A DNA stretch of 6,753 nucleotides, from positions 1-6,753 of the IMG/VR virus record IMGVR_UViG_2684622669_000006; one strand, written 5' to 3'. This document shows, piece after piece, positions 1-4,696 of the stretch. The notes under the pieces were generated by a model. It saw only the letters and a program-made list of their open reading frames with translations, ran no database searches and was not told the origin of the DNA. A program made the position numbers and the translations under genes. Source of the DNA: a virus. Its lineage: Duplodnaviria; Heunggongvirae; Uroviricota; Caudoviricetes. The first letter of the stretch is position 1. Each line of letters begins with the position of its first letter.

Positions 1-46
1 AAACGCGTGCTTTTGCGCCCGGGCATAAAGTTTTGAGGATTAACAA

Positions 47-577
47 ATGACCACTATAACCAAAGGGCGACTGCTGACAATCAAGCAGTGGCGCGAAACA
101 TACGGACCGGGTAGCAACGTTGTACTGCCAGCAGAAGAAGCAGAAGAACTGGCACGGATTGCACTGGCATCGCTGGAAGCAGAGCCAGTGGCGTGGAAGG
201 CAACCTTCACGCAAATTGACAATAAATATAATACGTTCACCACTATGTATTCTGACAAAGCAGAAGTCGAACGCTGGGTGCGACTGCATGAAATAGGTGA
301 CTTTCGGGCAGAAATAACACCGCTTTACGCAGCGCCGTCAGCGCCGGTAATTCCGGATGGTTGGATAAGCTGTAGTGAGCGGATGCCTGAAAAGAACCAG
401 AACGTGCTTATTTCGGTGAATTTCGATAGCTCTCTGGTTGAACCGCTAATATGCTCCGCACGCTATACAGGAAGCACATTCCGGCGAGGAGAAGCAACGA
501 TTAAGCCGGGTAATGGTATTGAGCAGGCAACTCACTGGATGCCGCTACCGGAACCACCGCAGGAGGTGAATCAATGA
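47..577 (+). CDS. Phage hypothetical protein with C-terminal DUF551-like domain
   Basis: 176-aa ORF with GAGG Shine-Dalgarno at 35-38, 8 nt before ATG 47. The C-terminal segment (DGWISCSERMPEKNQNVLI ... THWMPLPEPP) matches what I remember of the DUF551 domain common in lambdoid early-region proteins. Assignment is from memory, not a search. Confidence 0.65.
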   Translation: MTTITKGRLLTIKQWRETYGPGSNVVLPAEEAEELARIALASLEAEPVAWKATFTQIDNKYNTFTTMYSDKAEVERWVRLHEIGDFRAEITPLYAAPSAPVIPDGWISCSERMPEKNQNVLISVNFDSSLVEPLICSARYTGSTFRRGEATIKPGNGIEQATHWMPLPEPPQEVNQ

Positions 578-657
578 CCTGGCCTGAAGCATTCACAATG
601 GTAGGAATTGCGATGGCGGTGGCGCTGGTGGTGTATTCGATTTGCCGCTGGGGATAA
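574..657 (+). CDS. Small hydrophobic peptide (27 aa, MTWPEAFTMVGIAMAVALVVYSICRWG), predicted single transmembrane helix
   Basis: ATG 574-576 overlaps the TGA stop of the upstream gene (ATGA). A near-perfect SD AGGAGGT at 561-567 sits 6 nt upstream. The product is almost entirely hydrophobic with a C-terminal RW, and the bidirectional terminator follows directly. Confidence 0.45.
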   Translation: MTWPEAFTMVGIAMAVALVVYSICRWG

Positions 658-663
658 CAAACA

Positions 664-692
664 AAAACCCCGGATTGATGGTCCGGGGTTTT
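664..692. terminator. Bidirectional rho-independent terminator between convergent operons
   Basis: Stem CCCCGGA (668-674) pairs with TCCGGGG (682-688) around a 7-nt loop. It is flanked by an A-run (663-667) and a T-run (689-692), so it reads as a hairpin plus U-tract on both strands. It lies between the plus-strand peptide stop (657) and the minus-strand antitoxin stop (714). Confidence 0.6.
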
Positions 693-713
693 GCTATTCA
701 TGGTGAATTTTTA

Positions 714-1031
714 TTAACAGATTGACTGAATTCCGTTTTTCTCAACCACAGAAAGCAAACGAAGGGCAGGGCCACCAGGGCGCTTTATTCCCCTTTCCCA
801 GTCTGAAATGAGGTTTTTACTGACATTAAGATATCTGGCGAAAACAGGTTGAGACAGATGCTCGCGCTCGCGAAGTGCCCGGATTCTTTCTGGCGACATT
901 GTTGGCGCTGGTTGCAGACAGAGTTCATCAAACTCTCTCATAGTTTGTTTTGTAACTGCGCCAATATCCTGAAGTGACTCCATCATTTCATGTACGGATG
1001 CAAGTGCATCACTGCGGTAATTTTTACTCAT
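714..1031 (-). CDS. Type II antitoxin, HTH DNA-binding (MqsA/HigA-2-like, COG2944-type C-terminal HTH)
   Basis: 105-aa ORF whose C-terminal half (SPERIRALREREHLSQPVFARYLNVSKNLISDWERGIKRPGGPALRLL) has the pattern of the HTH found in HigA-2/MqsA-type antitoxins. SD GGAGGT lies 5 nt upstream of the ATG (minus strand, within the toxin 3' end). The start overlaps the toxin stop by 8 nt (ATGAGTAA). Confidence 0.8.
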   Translation of the reverse strand: MSKNYRSDALASVHEMMESLQDIGAVTKQTMREFDELCLQPAPTMSPERIRALREREHLSQPVFARYLNVSKNLISDWERGIKRPGGPALRLLSVVEKNGIQSIC

Positions 1032-1395
1032 TGGGTACCTCCGTAAACTGACCTTGCAGGATCAATTGCGCCAGTTGTTCATCAGTAAGATTGAGAACGT
1101 GATGCGCAGCTTTTCGAAATGCGTTTTCCTCGATGGCTGTAATATTTTCTCTCTCATTCTTTGCGTACGCATAGATGAAAAAAGCCTTTTCTGCGACGCG
1201 GTAAAAAATTATTGTCCTATAACCGCCTGATTTACCGCCACCTCTTCGGGCTAATCGCTGCTTAATGACACCACTACCCAAATCTGCGGATATGAGTCCC
1301 TTATCAGCTAGTTCCACGACTTCTCGCAGAGCTTTATCGGAAATCCGATTTTTTCGTGCGAAGCGTTCAAACCAGGCATTTTTGAAAATGCGCAT
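1024..1395 (-). CDS. Type II toxin, RelE/ParE superfamily (HigB-2 / DUF1044-like); start uncertain (ATG at 1395 or 1407)
   Basis: The coding part of the 171-aa track ORF starts at MEPNMRIFKNAWFERFARK. The Gly-rich motif RRGGGKSGGYRTIIFY and YAYAKNE match what I remember of HigB-2-family toxins. The upstream 44 codons of the track ORF are AT-rich and look non-coding. Neither candidate ATG has a good SD. Confidence 0.7.
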   Translation of the reverse strand: MRIFKNAWFERFARKNRISDKALREVVELADKGLISADLGSGVIKQRLARRGGGKSGGYRTIIFYRVAEKAFFIYAYAKNERENITAIEENAFRKAAHHVLNLTDEQLAQLILQGQFTEVPNE

Positions 1396-1411
1396 GTTTG
1401 GTTCCATACCG

Positions 1412-1436
1412 TTGTGTAATACATAGTGTGACACAA
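1412..1436. promoter_or_regulatory. Candidate operator: nested inverted repeats immediately upstream of the toxin start
   Basis: TTGTGT (1412-1417) and ACACAA (1431-1436) are an inverted repeat, with an inner palindrome TGTG-A-CACA (1427-1435). It sits in the AT-rich divergent intergenic region, directly 5' of the toxin ATG on the minus strand. Confidence 0.3.
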
Positions 1437-1636
1437 TTAAATAGGGCAGGCAATATCCATACAGAGGACTTGCTAAGGAATGGCGGCTCAAAAAACACTC
1501 TATTTTTAGAGTATACAAATGACAGAAAGAAAAAGTCATTGTTTTTTCTCATGAAATACGCATTTTTTGGGAGTGAAATCGTTATTTGTAGTGGATATAT
1601 TCCAGCCATGTTTTATCCAATACCAGAGGTTTTACA

Positions 1637-1849
1637 ATGCAGAAGTTGATCGCCGCGAATTGTAAGTACGCAGTTATTCGTTGTGACGATATGTCGGTTG
1701 TAGCTGAAATGGATTGTTTTCCGGATGGAGCCAGAGCTGTATGGCATCGAAAAGGGAACATGCTTAGGGTAAGAGCTTTGCGGGCTGATGAGCGAATTGT
1801 ATCGAAAACAGTGCTCAGGGAGATCGTGTATCAGTTTATGCGGACTTGA
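1637..1849 (+). CDS. Hypothetical protein (70 aa)
   Basis: ORF with SD AGAGG (1625-1629) 7 nt before ATG 1637. It is divergent from the toxin-antitoxin operon. No recognisable motif. Confidence 0.5.
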   Translation: MQKLIAANCKYAVIRCDDMSVVAEMDCFPDGARAVWHRKGNMLRVRALRADERIVSKTVLREIVYQFMRT

Positions 1850-1913
1850 ACAAGTTGTATGTATCAACAATAATGCCACCCAAAATGGCTGAACACCATT
1901 TTACCTGACAAAG

Positions 1914-2213
1914 ATGCGCCAGCAGAGACAACCGATGGCGCACGATACCAAATTACACAATTCTGATAATCTCGCCGTCCCTGCCAGCAGGCGCGGGCGG
2001 CGTTCTCATGCATTCAAATCTGACTGGTTCCAGCATGATCCATGCACTGAAGAACAGGCCGAATGGCTGATTCAGAACTACCGCAGACGTGGTTACGAGT
2101 TTCAGAAAGACCTCAGCCTCGACTTCCGACACTGGATCATCTCAGTCAGACTGCCTTACTCTGAACGCCCACCGCGTCCGTCCCGCACATTCCAGCAACG
2201 GATCTGGAGGTAA
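1914..2213 (+). CDS. Hypothetical protein (99 aa); start uncertain (ATG 1914 or 1935)
   Basis: Its TAA stop (2211-2213) sits between the GGAGG SD (2206-2210) and the GTG start (2215) of the downstream gene, which indicates coupling. Where the two track ORFs overlap (2089-2213), this frame gives protein-like sequence and the other frame gives low-complexity S/T-rich sequence. No clear SD for either ATG. Confidence 0.45.
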   Translation: MRQQRQPMAHDTKLHNSDNLAVPASRRGRRSHAFKSDWFQHDPCTEEQAEWLIQNYRRRGYEFQKDLSLDFRHWIISVRLPYSERPPRPSRTFQQRIWR

Positions 2214-2214
2214 C

Positions 2215-3270
2215 GTGCGGGTATTACTTCGACCTGTTCTGGTACCGGAACTCGGGCTGGTGGTCCTTAAGCCAGGTCGTGAATCCATGCAGGTATTTCA
2301 CAATCCTCGAGTGCTGGTGGAGCCGGAACCCAAAAGCATGCGCGGTCTGCCGTCCGGCATCGTCCCTGACGTTCGCCAGCCGCTGGCGGAGGATAAATCA
2401 TTACTGCCATTTTTCAGCGACGAACGGGTGATTCGTGCTGCTGGTGGCGCTGGCGCATTGTCTGACTGGTTACTGCGCCATGTTAAATCCTGCCAGTGGC
2501 CACACGGCGATTATCACCACAGTGAAACCGTCATTCACCGTTATGGCGCTGGCGCGATGGTGTTGTGCTGGCACTGTGACAACCAGCTGCGTGACCAGAC
2601 ATCCGAATCACTCGAGCAACTTGCTCATCAAAACCTGTCAGCATGGATGATTGACGTCATCGGTCACGCAATAAGCGGTACGCAGGAGCGTGAATTATCT
2701 TTGGCTGAATTATCCTGGTGGGCGGTCCGCAATCAGGTGGCGGACGCGCTACCGGAAGCGGTATTACGTCGTTCGCTGGGGTTGCGTGCGGAAAAAATCC
2801 GCTCAATGTACCGTGAAAGCGACATCGTACCGGGAGAGCAGACCGCCACCAGCATACTGAAGCAGCGCACAAAAAATCTTGCGCCGCTGCCTCACGCCCA
2901 CCAGCAAAACCCGCCACAGGAAAAGACGGTGGTCAGCATTGCCGTTGATCCGGAGTCACCGGCTCAGTATCTCCAGCGCCAGAAACCACAACGGGAAGAG
3001 ATGCCTGTATACACGCGTTGGGTAAAAACGCAGAAATGCATGACGTGCGGTAATCAGGCAGATGATCCGCATCACATCATTGGTCATGGACTGGGAGGGA
3101 TGGGAACAAAGGCTGATGATTTGTTTGTTATTCCGCTGTGCCGTAAATGTCATAACGAACTGCACGCCGGGGTAAAAGATTTTGAAGAAAAACACGGCAG
3201 CCAGCTGTTGTTGCTGATTCGTTTTTTAATGCACGCGAGAAATTCGGGTGTCCTGAAGTGGAAAGCATGA
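2215..3270 (+). CDS. Phage nin-region protein, DUF968/YdfU-like, with C-terminal HNH-like Cys/His motif
   Basis: In-frame GTG at 2215 lies 4 nt after GGAGG, giving a 351-aa product starting VRVLLRPVLVPELG. The C-terminus (CMTCGNQADDPHHIIGHG ... LCRKCHNELHAG) looks like an HNH/zinc-binding nuclease motif. The first ATG of the track ORF (2089) adds an implausible low-complexity extension. It sits directly upstream of rusA, as in lambdoid nin regions. Confidence 0.7.
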   Translation: MRVLLRPVLVPELGLVVLKPGRESMQVFHNPRVLVEPEPKSMRGLPSGIVPDVRQPLAEDKSLLPFFSDERVIRAAGGAGALSDWLLRHVKSCQWPHGDYHHSETVIHRYGAGAMVLCWHCDNQLRDQTSESLEQLAHQNLSAWMIDVIGHAISGTQERELSLAELSWWAVRNQVADALPEAVLRRSLGLRAEKIRSMYRESDIVPGEQTATSILKQRTKNLAPLPHAHQQNPPQEKTVVSIAVDPESPAQYLQRQKPQREEMPVYTRWVKTQKCMTCGNQADDPHHIIGHGLGGMGTKADDLFVIPLCRKCHNELHAGVKDFEEKHGSQLLLLIRFLMHARNSGVLKWKA

Positions 3271-3651
3271 ATGACTGAACGCATAGAATTTGTTTTGCCT
3301 TACCCGCCGACGGTGAATACCTACTGGCGACGTCATGGCAATACGTATTTCATCTCGGAAGCCGGAAAGCGTTATCGCCGTGATGTGGCGCTAATTGTTC
3401 GCCAGCAGCGGCTGAAATTAAGCCTGTCCGGAAGGCTGGCGATAAAGATTATTGCAGAGCCACCGGATAAGCGCCGCCGCGACCTGGACAATATCCTGAA
3501 GGCACCACTGGATGCACTGACACATGCAGGACTGCTTATCGATGACGAGCAGTTTGACGAAATCAATATAGTGCGCGGTCAGCTCGTTCCTGGTGGGCGA
3601 CTGGGCGTGAAGATTTACGAAATAATGCATGACGGGCAGGTCAAAAAATGA
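3271..3651 (+). CDS. rusA: Crossover junction endodeoxyribonuclease RusA (Holliday junction resolvase)
   Basis: 126-aa product. PYPPTVNTYWRRH at the N-terminus and DKRRRDLDNILKAPLDALTHAGLLIDDEQ match the conserved RusA core (compare E. coli RusA PDRRRRDLDN ... DALT ... DD). ATG follows directly after the upstream TGA (TGAATG). Confidence 0.9.
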   Translation: MTERIEFVLPYPPTVNTYWRRHGNTYFISEAGKRYRRDVALIVRQQRLKLSLSGRLAIKIIAEPPDKRRRDLDNILKAPLDALTHAGLLIDDEQFDEINIVRGQLVPGGRLGVKIYEIMHDGQVKK

Positions 3652-4469
3652 AACTGGAAGATTTACCGAAATACTACTCCCCAAAATCGCCTGGCCTGAC
3701 TGATGCATCCGTCTCGACGTCAAAAGATACGCTGAGTATCACTGATGTGATGGCTGCGCAGGGTATGACACAAAACCGTGCTGAGATTGGATTTTCTGCG
3801 TTCCTGGGGAAAATGGGCATTAGTATGAATGACAGGGCGCGGGCAACAGAATTACTGGCAGATTATGCATTAAGTCAGTGCGATCGCGTGGCGGCGTTAA
3901 GAAAACTTCCGGCAGAAATAAAACCGGCAGTGATGCGCATTATGGCTTCGTATGCTTTTGAGGATTATGCCCGCAGCGCAGCGAGTAAAAAGCAGTGCCC
4001 TTGTTGCCATGGGGAAAAATTTATTGAAAGCGTAGTTTTTACAAACAAGGTTCAGTATCCGGATGGCAAGCCGCCAGTATGGGCAAAGTGTACGAAGGGT
4101 GTGTATCCGTCTTACTGGGAAGAATGGAAAAAAGTCCGGGAAGTGGTAAAAGTTGCCTGTCCTGAATGCGGGGGAAAGGGTGAGGTCTCCACCGCCTGTA
4201 AGGATTGCCGTGGGCGTGGTGTCGCCATTCATCGTGAAGAGTCGGTAAAACGTGGTATGCCTGTTATCAGGGACTGCCAGCGTTGTGGCGGTCGTGGCTA
4301 TGAAAGACTGCCATCAACGGAGGCATTTAATGCCATATGCGAGGTCACAAATCAGATAACACGCGCGTCATGGGAAAAAACTGTTAAGCAATTCTATGAC
4401 AAGCTGGTGGTTCGGTTTGACATTGAAGAGGCATGGGCGGAGCGACAGTTAAAAAAGGTAACCAGATAA
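3648..4469 (+). CDS. Putative late-gene antitermination protein Q (Q82/QuuQ-like), Cys-rich zinc-binding domain
   Basis: ATG overlaps the rusA stop (ATGA). 273-aa product with CPCC (aa 117-120) and three CxxCxGxG repeats (CPECGGKG, CKDCRGRG, CQRCGGRG; aa 171-217). Position is immediately upstream of a promoter plus terminator and the lysis genes. The Q assignment rests on synteny and the Cys cluster, not on direct homology. Confidence 0.5.
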   Translation: MKLEDLPKYYSPKSPGLTDASVSTSKDTLSITDVMAAQGMTQNRAEIGFSAFLGKMGISMNDRARATELLADYALSQCDRVAALRKLPAEIKPAVMRIMASYAFEDYARSAASKKQCPCCHGEKFIESVVFTNKVQYPDGKPPVWAKCTKGVYPSYWEEWKKVREVVKVACPECGGKGEVSTACKDCRGRGVAIHREESVKRGMPVIRDCQRCGGRGYERLPSTEAFNAICEVTNQITRASWEKTVKQFYDKLVVRFDIEEAWAERQLKKVTR

Positions 4470-4474
4470 CAAGG

Positions 4475-4502
4475 TTGATTTTTCCGGAATCTGTGGTAAA
4501 TT
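4475..4502 (+). promoter_or_regulatory. Candidate late promoter (PR'-like), sigma70-type
   Basis: TTGATT (4475-4480), 16-nt spacer, TAAATT (4497-4502), located 6 nt downstream of the Q-like gene stop. An intrinsic terminator follows about 50 nt downstream. Confidence 0.4.
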
Positions 4503-4552
4503 TGCATCTAACGATGGGCGTTTTGTGCCTGACGTTAGAAGAATTTTTACAG

Positions 4553-4575
4553 CCCGCCTCCAAGCGGGTTTTTTT
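4553..4575 (+). terminator. Rho-independent terminator (tR'-like)
   Basis: GC stem CCCGC (4553-4557) pairs with GCGGG (4564-4568) around loop CTCCAA, followed by seven T (4569-4575). Confidence 0.6.
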
Positions 4576-4696
4576 ATGCCCGAAAAGCGGTACGGTACAT
4601 TAAACACGCTGGTGGTCGTGAATACTGACTTTTTATCTTGCTGGCTTTTTAGACAAGAGTTATTGGTATGTCATGTTAACCAGAAGGGAAAAAGAC

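Follow-up and report, generated by a model that had tools for sequence, protein, structure and literature searches.

A probable HigBA-2-class toxin-antitoxin operon carried as alternative cargo in a slot of an E. coli lambdoid prophage

Described systems related to the module

The toxin of the V. cholerae HigB-2/HigA-2 pair (PDB 5JA8, 5JAA, 5J9I and 8A0X) belongs to Pfam family PF06296, in which the toxin gene precedes the antitoxin gene (PMC11980606). Its active site includes residues K49, R51, R64, Y82 and K84 (PMC5416850, PMC10098735), and the footprinted HigA-2 operator is TGTACGC-N5-GCGTACA (PMC11006873). The DNA analysed here, a stretch of 6,753 nt called the window below, carries a toxin-antitoxin (TA) module which resembles this system in several respects. 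The toxin belongs to the same family and its gene comes first, the active-site residues and the Gly/Lys-rich loop are kept, the antitoxin is of similar length (105 aa against 104 aa) with a similar C-terminal helix-turn-helix (HTH) fold, and a palindrome of the same 7-N5-7 architecture lies upstream. However the relationship is distant. The toxin finds HigB-2 with an E-value of only 2e-4, covering residues 34-90, and is longer (123 aa against 110 aa) with an extra C-terminal helix in a low-confidence model. The N-terminal segment of the antitoxin has no detectable sequence similarity to residues 1-37 of HigA-2, the base-contacting residues of the HTH differ, and the palindrome half-site is TGTCACA instead of TGTACGC. 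Moreover, V. cholerae HigBA-2 resides in a superintegron while the present module is located in a prophage.

The closest experimentally tested pair is ToxP/AntitoxP (CBUA0028/CBUA0027) of the Coxiella burnetii plasmid QpH1, for which toxicity, inhibition of translation, neutralisation and binding to the promoter were demonstrated (PMC10098735). Gene order is the same. The toxins share 43% identity over 120 aa and the antitoxins 44% over 96 aa, including the N-terminal residues 10-43. ToxP carries 16 additional N-terminal residues in the PGAP annotation, and the Coxiella pair is plasmid-borne in an obligate intracellular host, where it serves plasmid maintenance, unlike the prophage-borne module described here. 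Bicistronic relE-yiaG modules, composed of a PF_RelE toxin and a YiaG-like antitoxin in the order T/A, have also been described with E. coli examples (Gerdes 2025, PMC11980606). Their antitoxins combine two N-terminal helices with a HigA2-like HTH, as in our AF2 model. For their toxins the same paper stresses extended, heterogeneous N-termini, whereas the conserved product here is the short 123-aa form. The module is therefore already known in kind: its family is catalogued and its toxin is named by automatic annotation.

Two other E. coli systems share part of these features. MqsR/MqsA is also toxin-first and the C-terminal HTH of MqsA is related in fold (3fmy, Foldseek E = 0.025), but the N-terminal zinc-binding domain of MqsA is missing here and the toxin is not a PF15723 member. 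In the K-12 Qin prophage RelBE, together with hokD, occupies the equivalent position beside rem and ydfU (DUF968). Its toxin is likewise an mRNase of the RelE superfamily, but the antitoxin gene comes first, RelB is a ribbon-helix-helix antitoxin, and the operon is codirectional with ydfU, rem and hokD while the present module is antisense to its neighbours. Similarity between the toxin and K-12 RelE, a protein assigned to PF05016 (PMC11980606), is marginal by BLASTP (E = 0.013 over 35 aa). A canonical RelBE of the K-12 type was rejected in view of the toxin-first order, the HTH antitoxin and the lack of a PF05016 match to the toxin in the Pfam search. A. baumannii HigBA2 was not retained as a comparator since the paper on it gives no firm basis for a Pfam assignment.

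With a probability of roughly 85%, we interpret the locus as an intact, autoregulated type II TA operon of the HigBA-2 class, formed by a PF06296 toxin and a YiaG/HigA-2-like HTH antitoxin and carried as alternative cargo in a prophage slot.

Family membership of the two proteins

Residues 1-120 of the toxin align with the whole PF06296 profile (positions 1-120 of 120; 159.7 bits for a cut-off of 27; E = 4.2e-47), formerly DUF1044. The same profile is carried by 120 of 120 toxin homologues among the matches listed, and the only significant PDB sequence matches are HigB-2 chains. This agrees with the preliminary description, which had assigned the protein to the HigB-2/DUF1044 branch of RelE/ParE and pointed to a Gly-rich RRGGGKSGGYRTIIFY and a YAYAKNE motif, both of which are found in the toxin. 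Residues K45, R47, R60, Y77 and K79 align with K49, R51, R64, Y82 and K84 of VcHigB2, and the Gly/Lys-rich β2-β3 loop is aligned as well. Most close relatives have Phe at position 77, which corresponds to the catalytic Tyr82, so that the exact catalytic set is uncertain in this subclade; Y75 is invariant. The AF2 model of the toxin, built with 47 homologues, reached a pLDDT of only 54. The three best PDB hits of the corresponding Foldseek search are all HigB2 (E = 0.04-0.2, TM 0.38-0.48) and, given this pLDDT, lend slight support to a RelE/BECR fold.

The activity presumed for the toxin is that of a ribosome-dependent mRNA endonuclease. The RelE/ParE fold can support both RelE-like and ParE-like activities, the superfamily includes gyrase poisons (PMC11980606), and PGAP gives the identical protein the generic name RelE/ParE family toxin. 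A ParE-like protein poisoning DNA gyrase is nevertheless extremely improbable here, since the toxin matches PF06296 and not PF05016 and keeps the basic residues of a RelE-type active site, and since the tested PF06296 members, HigB-2 and ToxP (the latter placed by its 43% identity), cleave ribosome-bound mRNA or inhibit translation.

The antitoxin matches the Pfam HTH_3 profile (E = 8e-8). Its best PDB sequence matches are the HigA-2 entries 5jaa and 5j9i, with E = 9e-8 (phmmer, residues 44-99) and 3e-8. Its AF2 model has a pLDDT of 84, Foldseek ranks 1-8 are all HigA-2, and the C-terminal domain superposes on HigA-2 with an rmsd of 1.0-1.4 Å over about 63 residues at 35% identity. This model thus predicts a dimerisation and DNA-binding domain of the HigA-2 type. 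The HTH had been described beforehand as MqsA/HigA-2-like. The HigA-2 half of that label is the top match by both sequence and fold, while the MqsA half fits only loosely, and membership of that family was rejected: the score against TIGR03830 (MqsA) is 31.8 bits (E = 1e-7), below the cut-off of 61.8 and limited to the C-terminal part, and there is no N-terminal CxxC...CxxC zinc-binding domain, the only Cys residues being C38 and C105. Among NCBIfam models a weak match was obtained to PRK10072 (E = 1e-4), the YiaG model. Residues 1-43 are highly conserved, form two predicted helices in the AF2 model and are common to Coxiella AntitoxP; they constitute a putative toxin-neutralising segment.

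Gene layout and control elements

The features of the locus are listed in Table 1.

Table 1. Coordinates of the module, its candidate control elements and the surrounding cassette in the window.
Feature	Position	Strand	Description
Exchangeable cassette	661..1914		segment differing from otherwise collinear sister prophages
Intrinsic terminator hairpin	664..692	-	AAAACCCCGGA-N7-TCCGGGGTTTT + T-run, 3' of antitoxin gene
Antitoxin gene	714..1031	-	105 aa, C-terminal HigA-2-type HTH
Toxin gene	1024..1395	-	123 aa, PF06296 / HigB-2-class RelE-superfamily
Translational-coupling junction	1024..1042	-	GGAGG + antitoxin ATG/toxin TAA overlap
Candidate operator	1415..1433	-	imperfect 19-bp palindrome TGTCACA-CTATG-TATTACA, 7-N5-7
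Candidate sigma-70 promoter	1510..1539	-	-35 ATGACT, 18-nt spacer, -10 TATACT
Unannotated 70-aa ORF	1637..1849	+	divergent from TA operon, inside cassette

Two minus-strand ORFs span 714-1031 (105 aa) and 1024-1539 (171 aa). The toxin stop codon (TAA, 1026-1024) and the antitoxin start codon (ATG, 1031-1029) overlap by 8 nt, ATGAGTAA, and a GGAGG Shine-Dalgarno sequence at 1042-1038 lies within the 3' end of the toxin gene, 6 nt ahead of the antitoxin ATG. In the Salmonella and Halomonas homologues the toxin gene likewise comes first, with the same 8-nt overlap. The neighbouring genes (DUF551, rem-like, DUF968, RusA, Q and methylase) are all on the + strand, so that the module is antisense to them, and the GC content upstream of the toxin gene is 0.345-0.35 (1401-1700) against about 0.44-0.59 in the rest of the window. 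The preliminary description was accurate on all these points, namely a two-gene minus-strand operon with overlapping genes, a strong internal Shine-Dalgarno for the antitoxin, an orientation opposite to the flanking phage genes and an AT-rich upstream region. It erred in ending the module at 1407. That position is merely an upstream in-frame ATG (MEPNMRIF), and the conserved 123-aa product (MRIF...) starts from the ATG at 1395. The O26 and O157 copies carry an in-frame TAA six codons upstream of this ATG, which identifies 1395 as the real toxin start. The 171-aa ORF is most likely fortuitous, in view of the same O26/O157 stop and of the Pfam profile, which begins at M1 of the 123-aa form. The functional unit exceeds 714-1407, since the terminator hairpin and the palindrome have to be added to the two genes.

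The palindrome is located 20-38 nt upstream of the toxin ATG. It occurs once in the window (0 expected by chance) and is the sole conserved block in the otherwise unrelated upstream regions of six loci that span gammaproteobacterial orders and include E. coli, Salmonella, Halomonas and a Thioflavicoccus-like contig. It is likely to represent the operator of the module. The four base-contacting residues of VcHigA2 are not kept in the antitoxin (alignment, with PMC11006873), so that it is the conservation of the palindrome which argues for this assignment. Being kept from E. coli to Halomonas, it provides an operator candidate for a large and little-studied subclade of HigA-2/YiaG-like antitoxins. 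The putative promoter matches 9 of 12 consensus positions, and -10-like hexamers (TATACT, TACAAT and TATAAT) occupy the same alignment columns in three of four aligned loci. However the consensus scan found 5 promoter-like sites against 3.2 +/- 1.9 in shuffles, a count not exceeding that of shuffles, and this promoter is thus only a candidate; a weaker promoter overlapping the palindrome is an alternative.

The terminator has an 11-bp stem with 6 GC pairs, fully (100%) complementary arms and a T-tail. Its RNA folds with a dG of -20.5 kcal/mol (z = -3.7) and the + strand folds as well (z = -2.45). The hairpin has an A-run on one side and a T-run on the other and could therefore act on rightward phage transcription too. 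A LexA/SOS box has been reported for Salmonella higB-2 (PMC8072944). Between positions 1 and 4260 of the window no CTGT-N8-ACAG site was found with up to one mismatch, and SOS control of the module is thus not supported. An Rfam scan of the whole window (E <= 1) gave three sub-threshold matches, none inside the module, and no sok-like or other known RNA in the window.

The mechanism that we infer from these elements would involve a single leftward transcript starting in the AT-rich region and ending at the hairpin. The toxin would be translated from a weak ribosome-binding site and the antitoxin from the strong GGAGG, coupled through the overlap, which would keep the antitoxin in excess. The conserved N-terminal helices of the antitoxin may wrap the toxin and hold it off the ribosome, while a dimer of the C-terminal HTH bound to the palindrome would repress the operon. 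Should antitoxin synthesis be halted or the cassette lost, the freed toxin would enter the ribosomal A site and cut the translating mRNA with K45, R47, R60, Y77 and K79, leading to growth arrest.

Among 5426 complete E. coli genomes, 215 carry a related module. The DNA has a 100% identical counterpart in E. coli SLK172, whose annotation already names the protein a RelE/ParE toxin. Many related toxin genes are damaged. Those of O104:H4 and of PhiR12_3, the only deposited phage genome with the module, have a frameshift after about residue 15 next to an intact antitoxin gene; those of JNE082640 and 94-3024 are split in two and that of NMBU-W12E19 is interrupted by an IS66 element. Two toxin CDSs are listed in 7 of the 30 records sampled. 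An active toxin is therefore not selected for everywhere, and the frequent association of a broken toxin with an intact antitoxin would fit a decaying remnant, in which the toxin is inactive and the HTH protein is retained only for regulation or as an orphan antitoxin. For the present copy this is very unlikely. Both ORFs are full length, the toxin spans the whole Pfam profile with its catalytic residues present, and the coupling overlap and Shine-Dalgarno are intact. Compared with the 80%-identical O26 copy, dN/dS is 0.046 for the toxin (dS 0.79) and 0.045 for the antitoxin. As judged from these values (about 0.05), both genes are under strong purifying selection. Together with the Pfam E-value of the toxin, this speaks against ORFs arisen by chance.

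The cassette, its slot and possible roles

The module is located between the replication genes and the rem/DUF968-RusA-Q region of an E. coli lambdoid prophage. Homology to two sister prophages (L006 and L007) stops at 660 and restarts at 1915, and that to K-12 Qin restarts at 1918. Besides the TA operon and the AT-rich control region, the intervening cassette contains the terminator and a small ORF on the + strand. We compared the slot in 17 contexts (16 E. coli prophages and one phage genome). In sister prophages the segment is replaced by hok, HicAB, ParDE, RelBE, Doc or an HTH/ImmA pair, and other replacements are the IteAS anti-phage system (IteA/IteS, in strain TUM14664), QueH and the Paa adhesin. 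Where the preliminary description spoke of an insertion, the module is better described as one of many alternative cassettes. A swappable TA or defence slot had been proposed by analogy with relBE and hokD, described as lying beside ydfU in Qin; cargo indeed varies across the 17 contexts, and the order ydfU-rem-hokD-relE-relB was found in Qin. The sequence to the right (1915 onward) occurs at 9104 places in 4547 of 5426 E. coli genomes, while segment 1604-1914 is present in just 10 of the 5426, each time with the present TA variant. This one short slot, in a prophage backbone very common in E. coli, cycles through at least seven TA types; a named anti-phage system, a tRNA-modification gene and an adhesin occur in it too. 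It thus offers a convenient "cargo bay" of natural origin in which to look for new defence or addiction genes.

The most probable role of the TA operon is a selfish one, namely to stabilise the cassette or prophage, and phage exclusion may be a side effect of it. The addiction role is assumed by analogy (PMC8706911, PMC12548467). The main function could instead be directed against phages, by superinfection exclusion or abortive infection: a phage entering the cell would shut off host transcription or inactivate the antitoxin, and the mRNase thus freed would stop translation before the cycle of the invader is complete. The prophage location is in keeping with such a function, as is the presence in the same slot of IteA/IteS in TUM14664 and of hok, HicAB, ParDE, Doc or the HTH/ImmA pair elsewhere. 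In addition, other toxins of the RelE superfamily, the HigB toxins of TAC modules, trigger abortive infection when the lambda tail protein is sensed (PMC11980606). However the toxin has no match to the defence-protein models of PADLOC-DB 2.0, and its PHROG families are of "unknown function". In the literature searched, no defence phenotype was found for any PF06296 member, and on plasmids from many phyla the toxin family is no less common (274 records), the role documented there being stabilisation. Defence as the main function is thus rather unlikely. At the molecular level, an abortive-infection role and a HigBA-2-class TA operon are compatible. The antitoxin gives only generic HTH matches in PADLOC-DB 2.0 (E = 3e-5 or weaker).

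A more specific proposal, which we consider clearly doubtful, is that the segment upstream of rem/DUF968 is a dedicated exchange hotspot for TA and anti-phage systems and that the antisense module works as a switch, either coupled to induction or acting by abortive infection. Conserved recombination anchors at about 574-660 and from 1915 onward may bound such a hotspot. As an example of the switch, convergent early-right transcription upon induction or superinfection may silence antitoxin synthesis and free the mRNase, and the divergent 70-aa ORF may be part of the system. No specific prior description of the nin-region slot as a TA hotspot was found in the literature, which does not prove its absence.

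The 70-aa ORF was annotated in none of 10 complete genomes. It is preceded by an AGAGG 7 nt ahead of its ATG and matches phrog_1813 (E = 7e-16). The identical protein is encoded on 210 contigs, and homologues with 46-69% identity are found in Citrobacter and Salmonella.

Operon organization and identity of its products

Two overlapping minus-strand ORFs lie between the DUF551 and rem-like genes of an E. coli lambdoid prophage, in a window that covers its early-right (replication-to-Q) and lysis-proximal region. The upstream member encodes the toxin (MRIFKNAWFERF...TEVPNE) and the downstream member the antitoxin (MSKNYRSDALAS...GIQSIC). At their junction, GGAGGTACCCAATGAGTAA, a strong Shine-Dalgarno is located 6 nt before the antitoxin ATG, and this ATG and the toxin stop share an 8-nt overlap. 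This toxin-first, translationally overlapping layout, opposite to the flanking phage genes and preceded by an AT-rich region (GC drops to 0.345-0.35 upstream of the toxin gene), is as given in the preliminary description. Its right-hand end at 1407 is not: that position is an upstream in-frame ATG, and the 123-aa product starts at 1395. The best public match to the window is E. coli SLK172 (97% identity, 92% of the window covered, 100% identity over 700-1620).

Features of the window (+, left to right; -, right to left)
Feature	Position	Strand	Remarks
DUF551 gene	47-577	+	profile/annotation
Exchanged cassette	661-1914		
Hairpin then T-run	664-692	-	GC-rich; 22 nt past antitoxin stop
Antitoxin ORF	1031-714	-	105 aa
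Toxin ORF	1395-1024	-	123 aa
Candidate operator	1415-1433		imperfect 7-N5-7 palindrome; TGTCACACTATGTATTACA
Candidate promoter	1539-1510	-	ATGACT-18-TATACT
70-aa ORF	1637-1849	+	AGAGG 7 nt upstream (good Shine-Dalgarno); divergent from operon
rem-like small gene	about 1935-2213	+	
DUF968 gene	ends 3270	+	
RusA gene	3271-3651	+	
Q-type antiterminator gene	3648-4469	+	
Trp_leader-like match	4470-4577		directly 3' of Q gene
N6/N4 DNA methylase gene	5051-6103	+	
LexA-box-like sequence	5061-5076		codons 4-9 of methylase gene
Holin gene	after methylase gene in + strand order	+	

Upstream of the real start the toxin frame contains no stop for 48 codons, and one pipeline calls a 171-aa protein (1024-1539, minus strand; cluster P0001, 118 member sequences). 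This longer ORF was rejected as a fortuitously open frame because the O26:H11 and O157:H7 copies carry an in-frame TAA six codons upstream of the toxin ATG and the Pfam profile PF06296 starts at the first residue of the 123-aa product. Over-long predictions of this sort may account in part for the "extended, heterogeneous, disordered N-termini" described in PF_RelE toxins adjoining yiaG homologues (PMC11980606).

The toxin matches the whole of PF06296 (positions 1-120 of 120; 159.7 bits, E = 4e-47), in agreement with its earlier assignment as a HigB-2-type RelE/ParE toxin. This family, to which V. cholerae HigB-2 belongs, is catalogued among the ribosome-dependent mRNases and has toxin-first order (PMC11980606). 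HigB-2 chains are the only significant PDB sequence matches. In the alignment with HigB-2, whose PDB chain numbering is the same as the published one, toxin residues K45, R47, R60, Y77 and K79 lie opposite the active-site residues K49, R51, R64, Y82 and K84 (PMC5416850; PMC10098735), and RRGGGKSGGY lies opposite the Gly/Lys-rich beta2-beta3 loop, SKGKGKRGGS. Among 47 close homologues, position 77 is mostly Phe and Tyr75 is invariant. The AF2 model of the toxin is of low confidence (pLDDT 54). RefSeq names an identical protein type II RelE/ParE toxin and its partner HTH protein.

The antitoxin contains an XRE-type HTH. Its best sequence match is HigA-2 (E = 9e-8, residues 44-99), and in its good AF2 model (pLDDT 84) two N-terminal helices precede a four-helix HTH domain. 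HigA-2 occupies Foldseek PDB ranks 1-8, with the C-terminal domain superposing at 1.0-1.4 A. Of the MqsA/HigA-2 type first proposed, sequence and fold retain HigA-2. The relationship to MqsA is more remote: the antitoxin lacks the MqsA zinc domain and scores under the TIGR03830 cut-off. An MqsRA system was rejected on that score, and a canonical RelBE system by BLASTP comparison with K-12 RelE.

The match to the profile, the active-site residues, the order of the genes and the HTH fold of the antitoxin place the module in the HigBA-2 / PF_RelE-YiaG class. Among experimentally tested pairs the closest is ToxP/AntitoxP of Coxiella burnetii plasmid QpH1 (43% toxin and 44% antitoxin identity), for which toxicity, translation inhibition, neutralisation and promoter binding were demonstrated (PMC10098735). 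Bicistronic PF_RelE + YiaG-like modules, E. coli examples included, have already been described (Gerdes 2025, PMC11980606). The module is an already-known kind of element and not surprising in itself; its residual value lies in the cargo slot, a deeply conserved operator candidate and an unannotated 70-aa ORF.

Candidate control elements and a small divergent ORF

Alignment of otherwise unrelated toxin-upstream regions revealed a single common block 20-40 nt before the ATG, present in the O26 and O104 (TGTAACACTATGTGTTATA), Salmonella (TGTAATACTATGTGTTATA), Halomonas (TGTCACACTAAGTATTATA) and Thioflavicoccus-like (ATAACACTAAGTGTGAC) loci. The window has a single copy of the motif. Its palindromic layout is shared with the DNase-footprinted HigA2 operator, TGTACGC-N5-GCGTACA, which covers the -35 to -10 interval (PMC11006873). 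This likeness and the conservation suggest that the palindrome is the operator of the operon. Hexamers resembling the -10 of the candidate promoter occupy the same columns in 3 of the 4 loci aligned; a weaker one that overlaps the palindrome is just as possible. Window positions 1-4260 contain no LexA box (CTGT-N8-ACAG, up to one mismatch).

The hairpin downstream of the antitoxin has a folding dG as RNA of -20.5 kcal/mol (z = -3.7). An A-run borders it on one side and a T-run on the other, and the + strand folds too (640-716, dG -25.6 kcal/mol, z = -2.45), so the hairpin could be a bidirectional terminator that stops early phage transcription running rightward. Its left edge (about 660) is precisely where homology to sister prophages stops.

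The 70-aa ORF product matches phrog_1813 (E = 7e-16), is identical to an "uncharacterised protein" of 210 contigs and has homologues in Citrobacter and Salmonella (46-69% identity). All 10 complete E. coli genomes with this segment lack an annotated feature there, and the ORF is probably a genuine small gene that annotation has overlooked.

The slot upstream of rem/DUF968

In collinear sister prophages homology to the window ends at about 660 and resumes at 1915, which delimits the exchanged cassette. It contains the terminator, the operon, its AT-rich control region and the small + strand ORF. At the same place K-12 Qin carries relB-relE-hokD-rem, in line with the preliminary description. Other cargo comprises hokD with an HTH/ImmA pair (Z1323CEC0004), hok with HicAB (Z1323CEC0016), antisense ParDE (RMDEC465), QueH (epoxyqueuosine reductase) with hokD (TUM1886, WP4-S17), hokD only (CH10982), the Paa adhesin with hokD (UTME-2; Paa region, locus L019 1225-1983), the annotated anti-phage system IteA ATPase + IteS S8 peptidase (TUM14664; locus L023 1-2612), unnamed antisense genes (MB06101), and ORF6N with hokD and the HigBA-2-like module (O26, O157, JNE082640, 94-3024). 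Such variety, observed in a sample of 17 contexts and not a census, supports the earlier proposal of a swappable slot for TA or defence genes.

Of 5426 complete genomes, 4547 have the right-hand slot anchor (9104 places), 215 the module (221 places, all chromosomal) and 10 the exact window cassette. NinB-type backbones (O104:H4, NMBU-W12E19, 2013C-3033) carry the module too, in every case antisense; in the first two it adjoins hokD and a Doc toxin. In a Salmonella lambdoid prophage (locus L015 2164-3682) and a Thioflavicoccus-like contig (locus L017 409-2185) it lies directly beside a Phd/YefM-PIN (VapC) pair, with which it forms a small TA cluster.

Selection, decay and possible role

Against the 80%-identical O26:H11 copy, dN/dS is 0.046 for the toxin (dS 0.79) and 0.045 for the antitoxin (dS 1.28), pointing to strong purifying selection in each case. 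The order of toxin then 105-106-aa HTH protein is kept in the Salmonella prophage, a Halomonas chromosome and the Thioflavicoccus-like contig, and the 8-nt overlap in the first two. Several relatives have a broken toxin beside an intact antitoxin: it is frameshifted after about residue 15 in O104:H4 and phage PhiR12_3, split into two CDSs in JNE082640 and 94-3024, and truncated by an IS66 element in NMBU-W12E19. Toxin loss with antitoxin retention is the usual decay course of toxin-antitoxin pairs.

Family membership, intact ORFs with coupling signals and terminator, purifying selection and the conserved palindrome are shown by the sequence; the steps of the predicted mechanism follow those of the family. 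The toxin would be a ribosome-dependent A-site mRNA endonuclease, neutralised by binding of the antitoxin N-terminal segment, and an antitoxin HTH dimer at the palindrome would repress the operon. A presumably weak toxin ribosome-binding site and the strong coupled antitoxin site would ensure antitoxin excess; loss of antitoxin supply would free the toxin. The role assumed by default is selfish stabilisation of the prophage or of the cassette, with ParESO/CopASO in prophage CP4So (PMC8706911) and the plasmid-borne relatives (274 plasmid records) as analogues. Abortive infection is a live alternative, but PADLOC gives no match to the toxin, whose PHROG families have unknown function.

Further downstream, the Q antiterminator contains DnaJ-type CXXCXGXG zinc-finger repeats, with a match to PF00684 (E = 5e-7) that stays below the cut-off. 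The adjoining Rfam Trp_leader match is sub-threshold (25.2 bits, gathering score 41); it falls where one expects a late promoter and terminator region, and it is probably no more than a terminator-like hairpin. The methyltransferase gene sits between Q and holin, where related prophages also have tRNA genes and Stx phages their stx genes. The perfect CTGT-N8-ACAG within it may be a chance occurrence: the window has 5 matches, and about 2 are expected.
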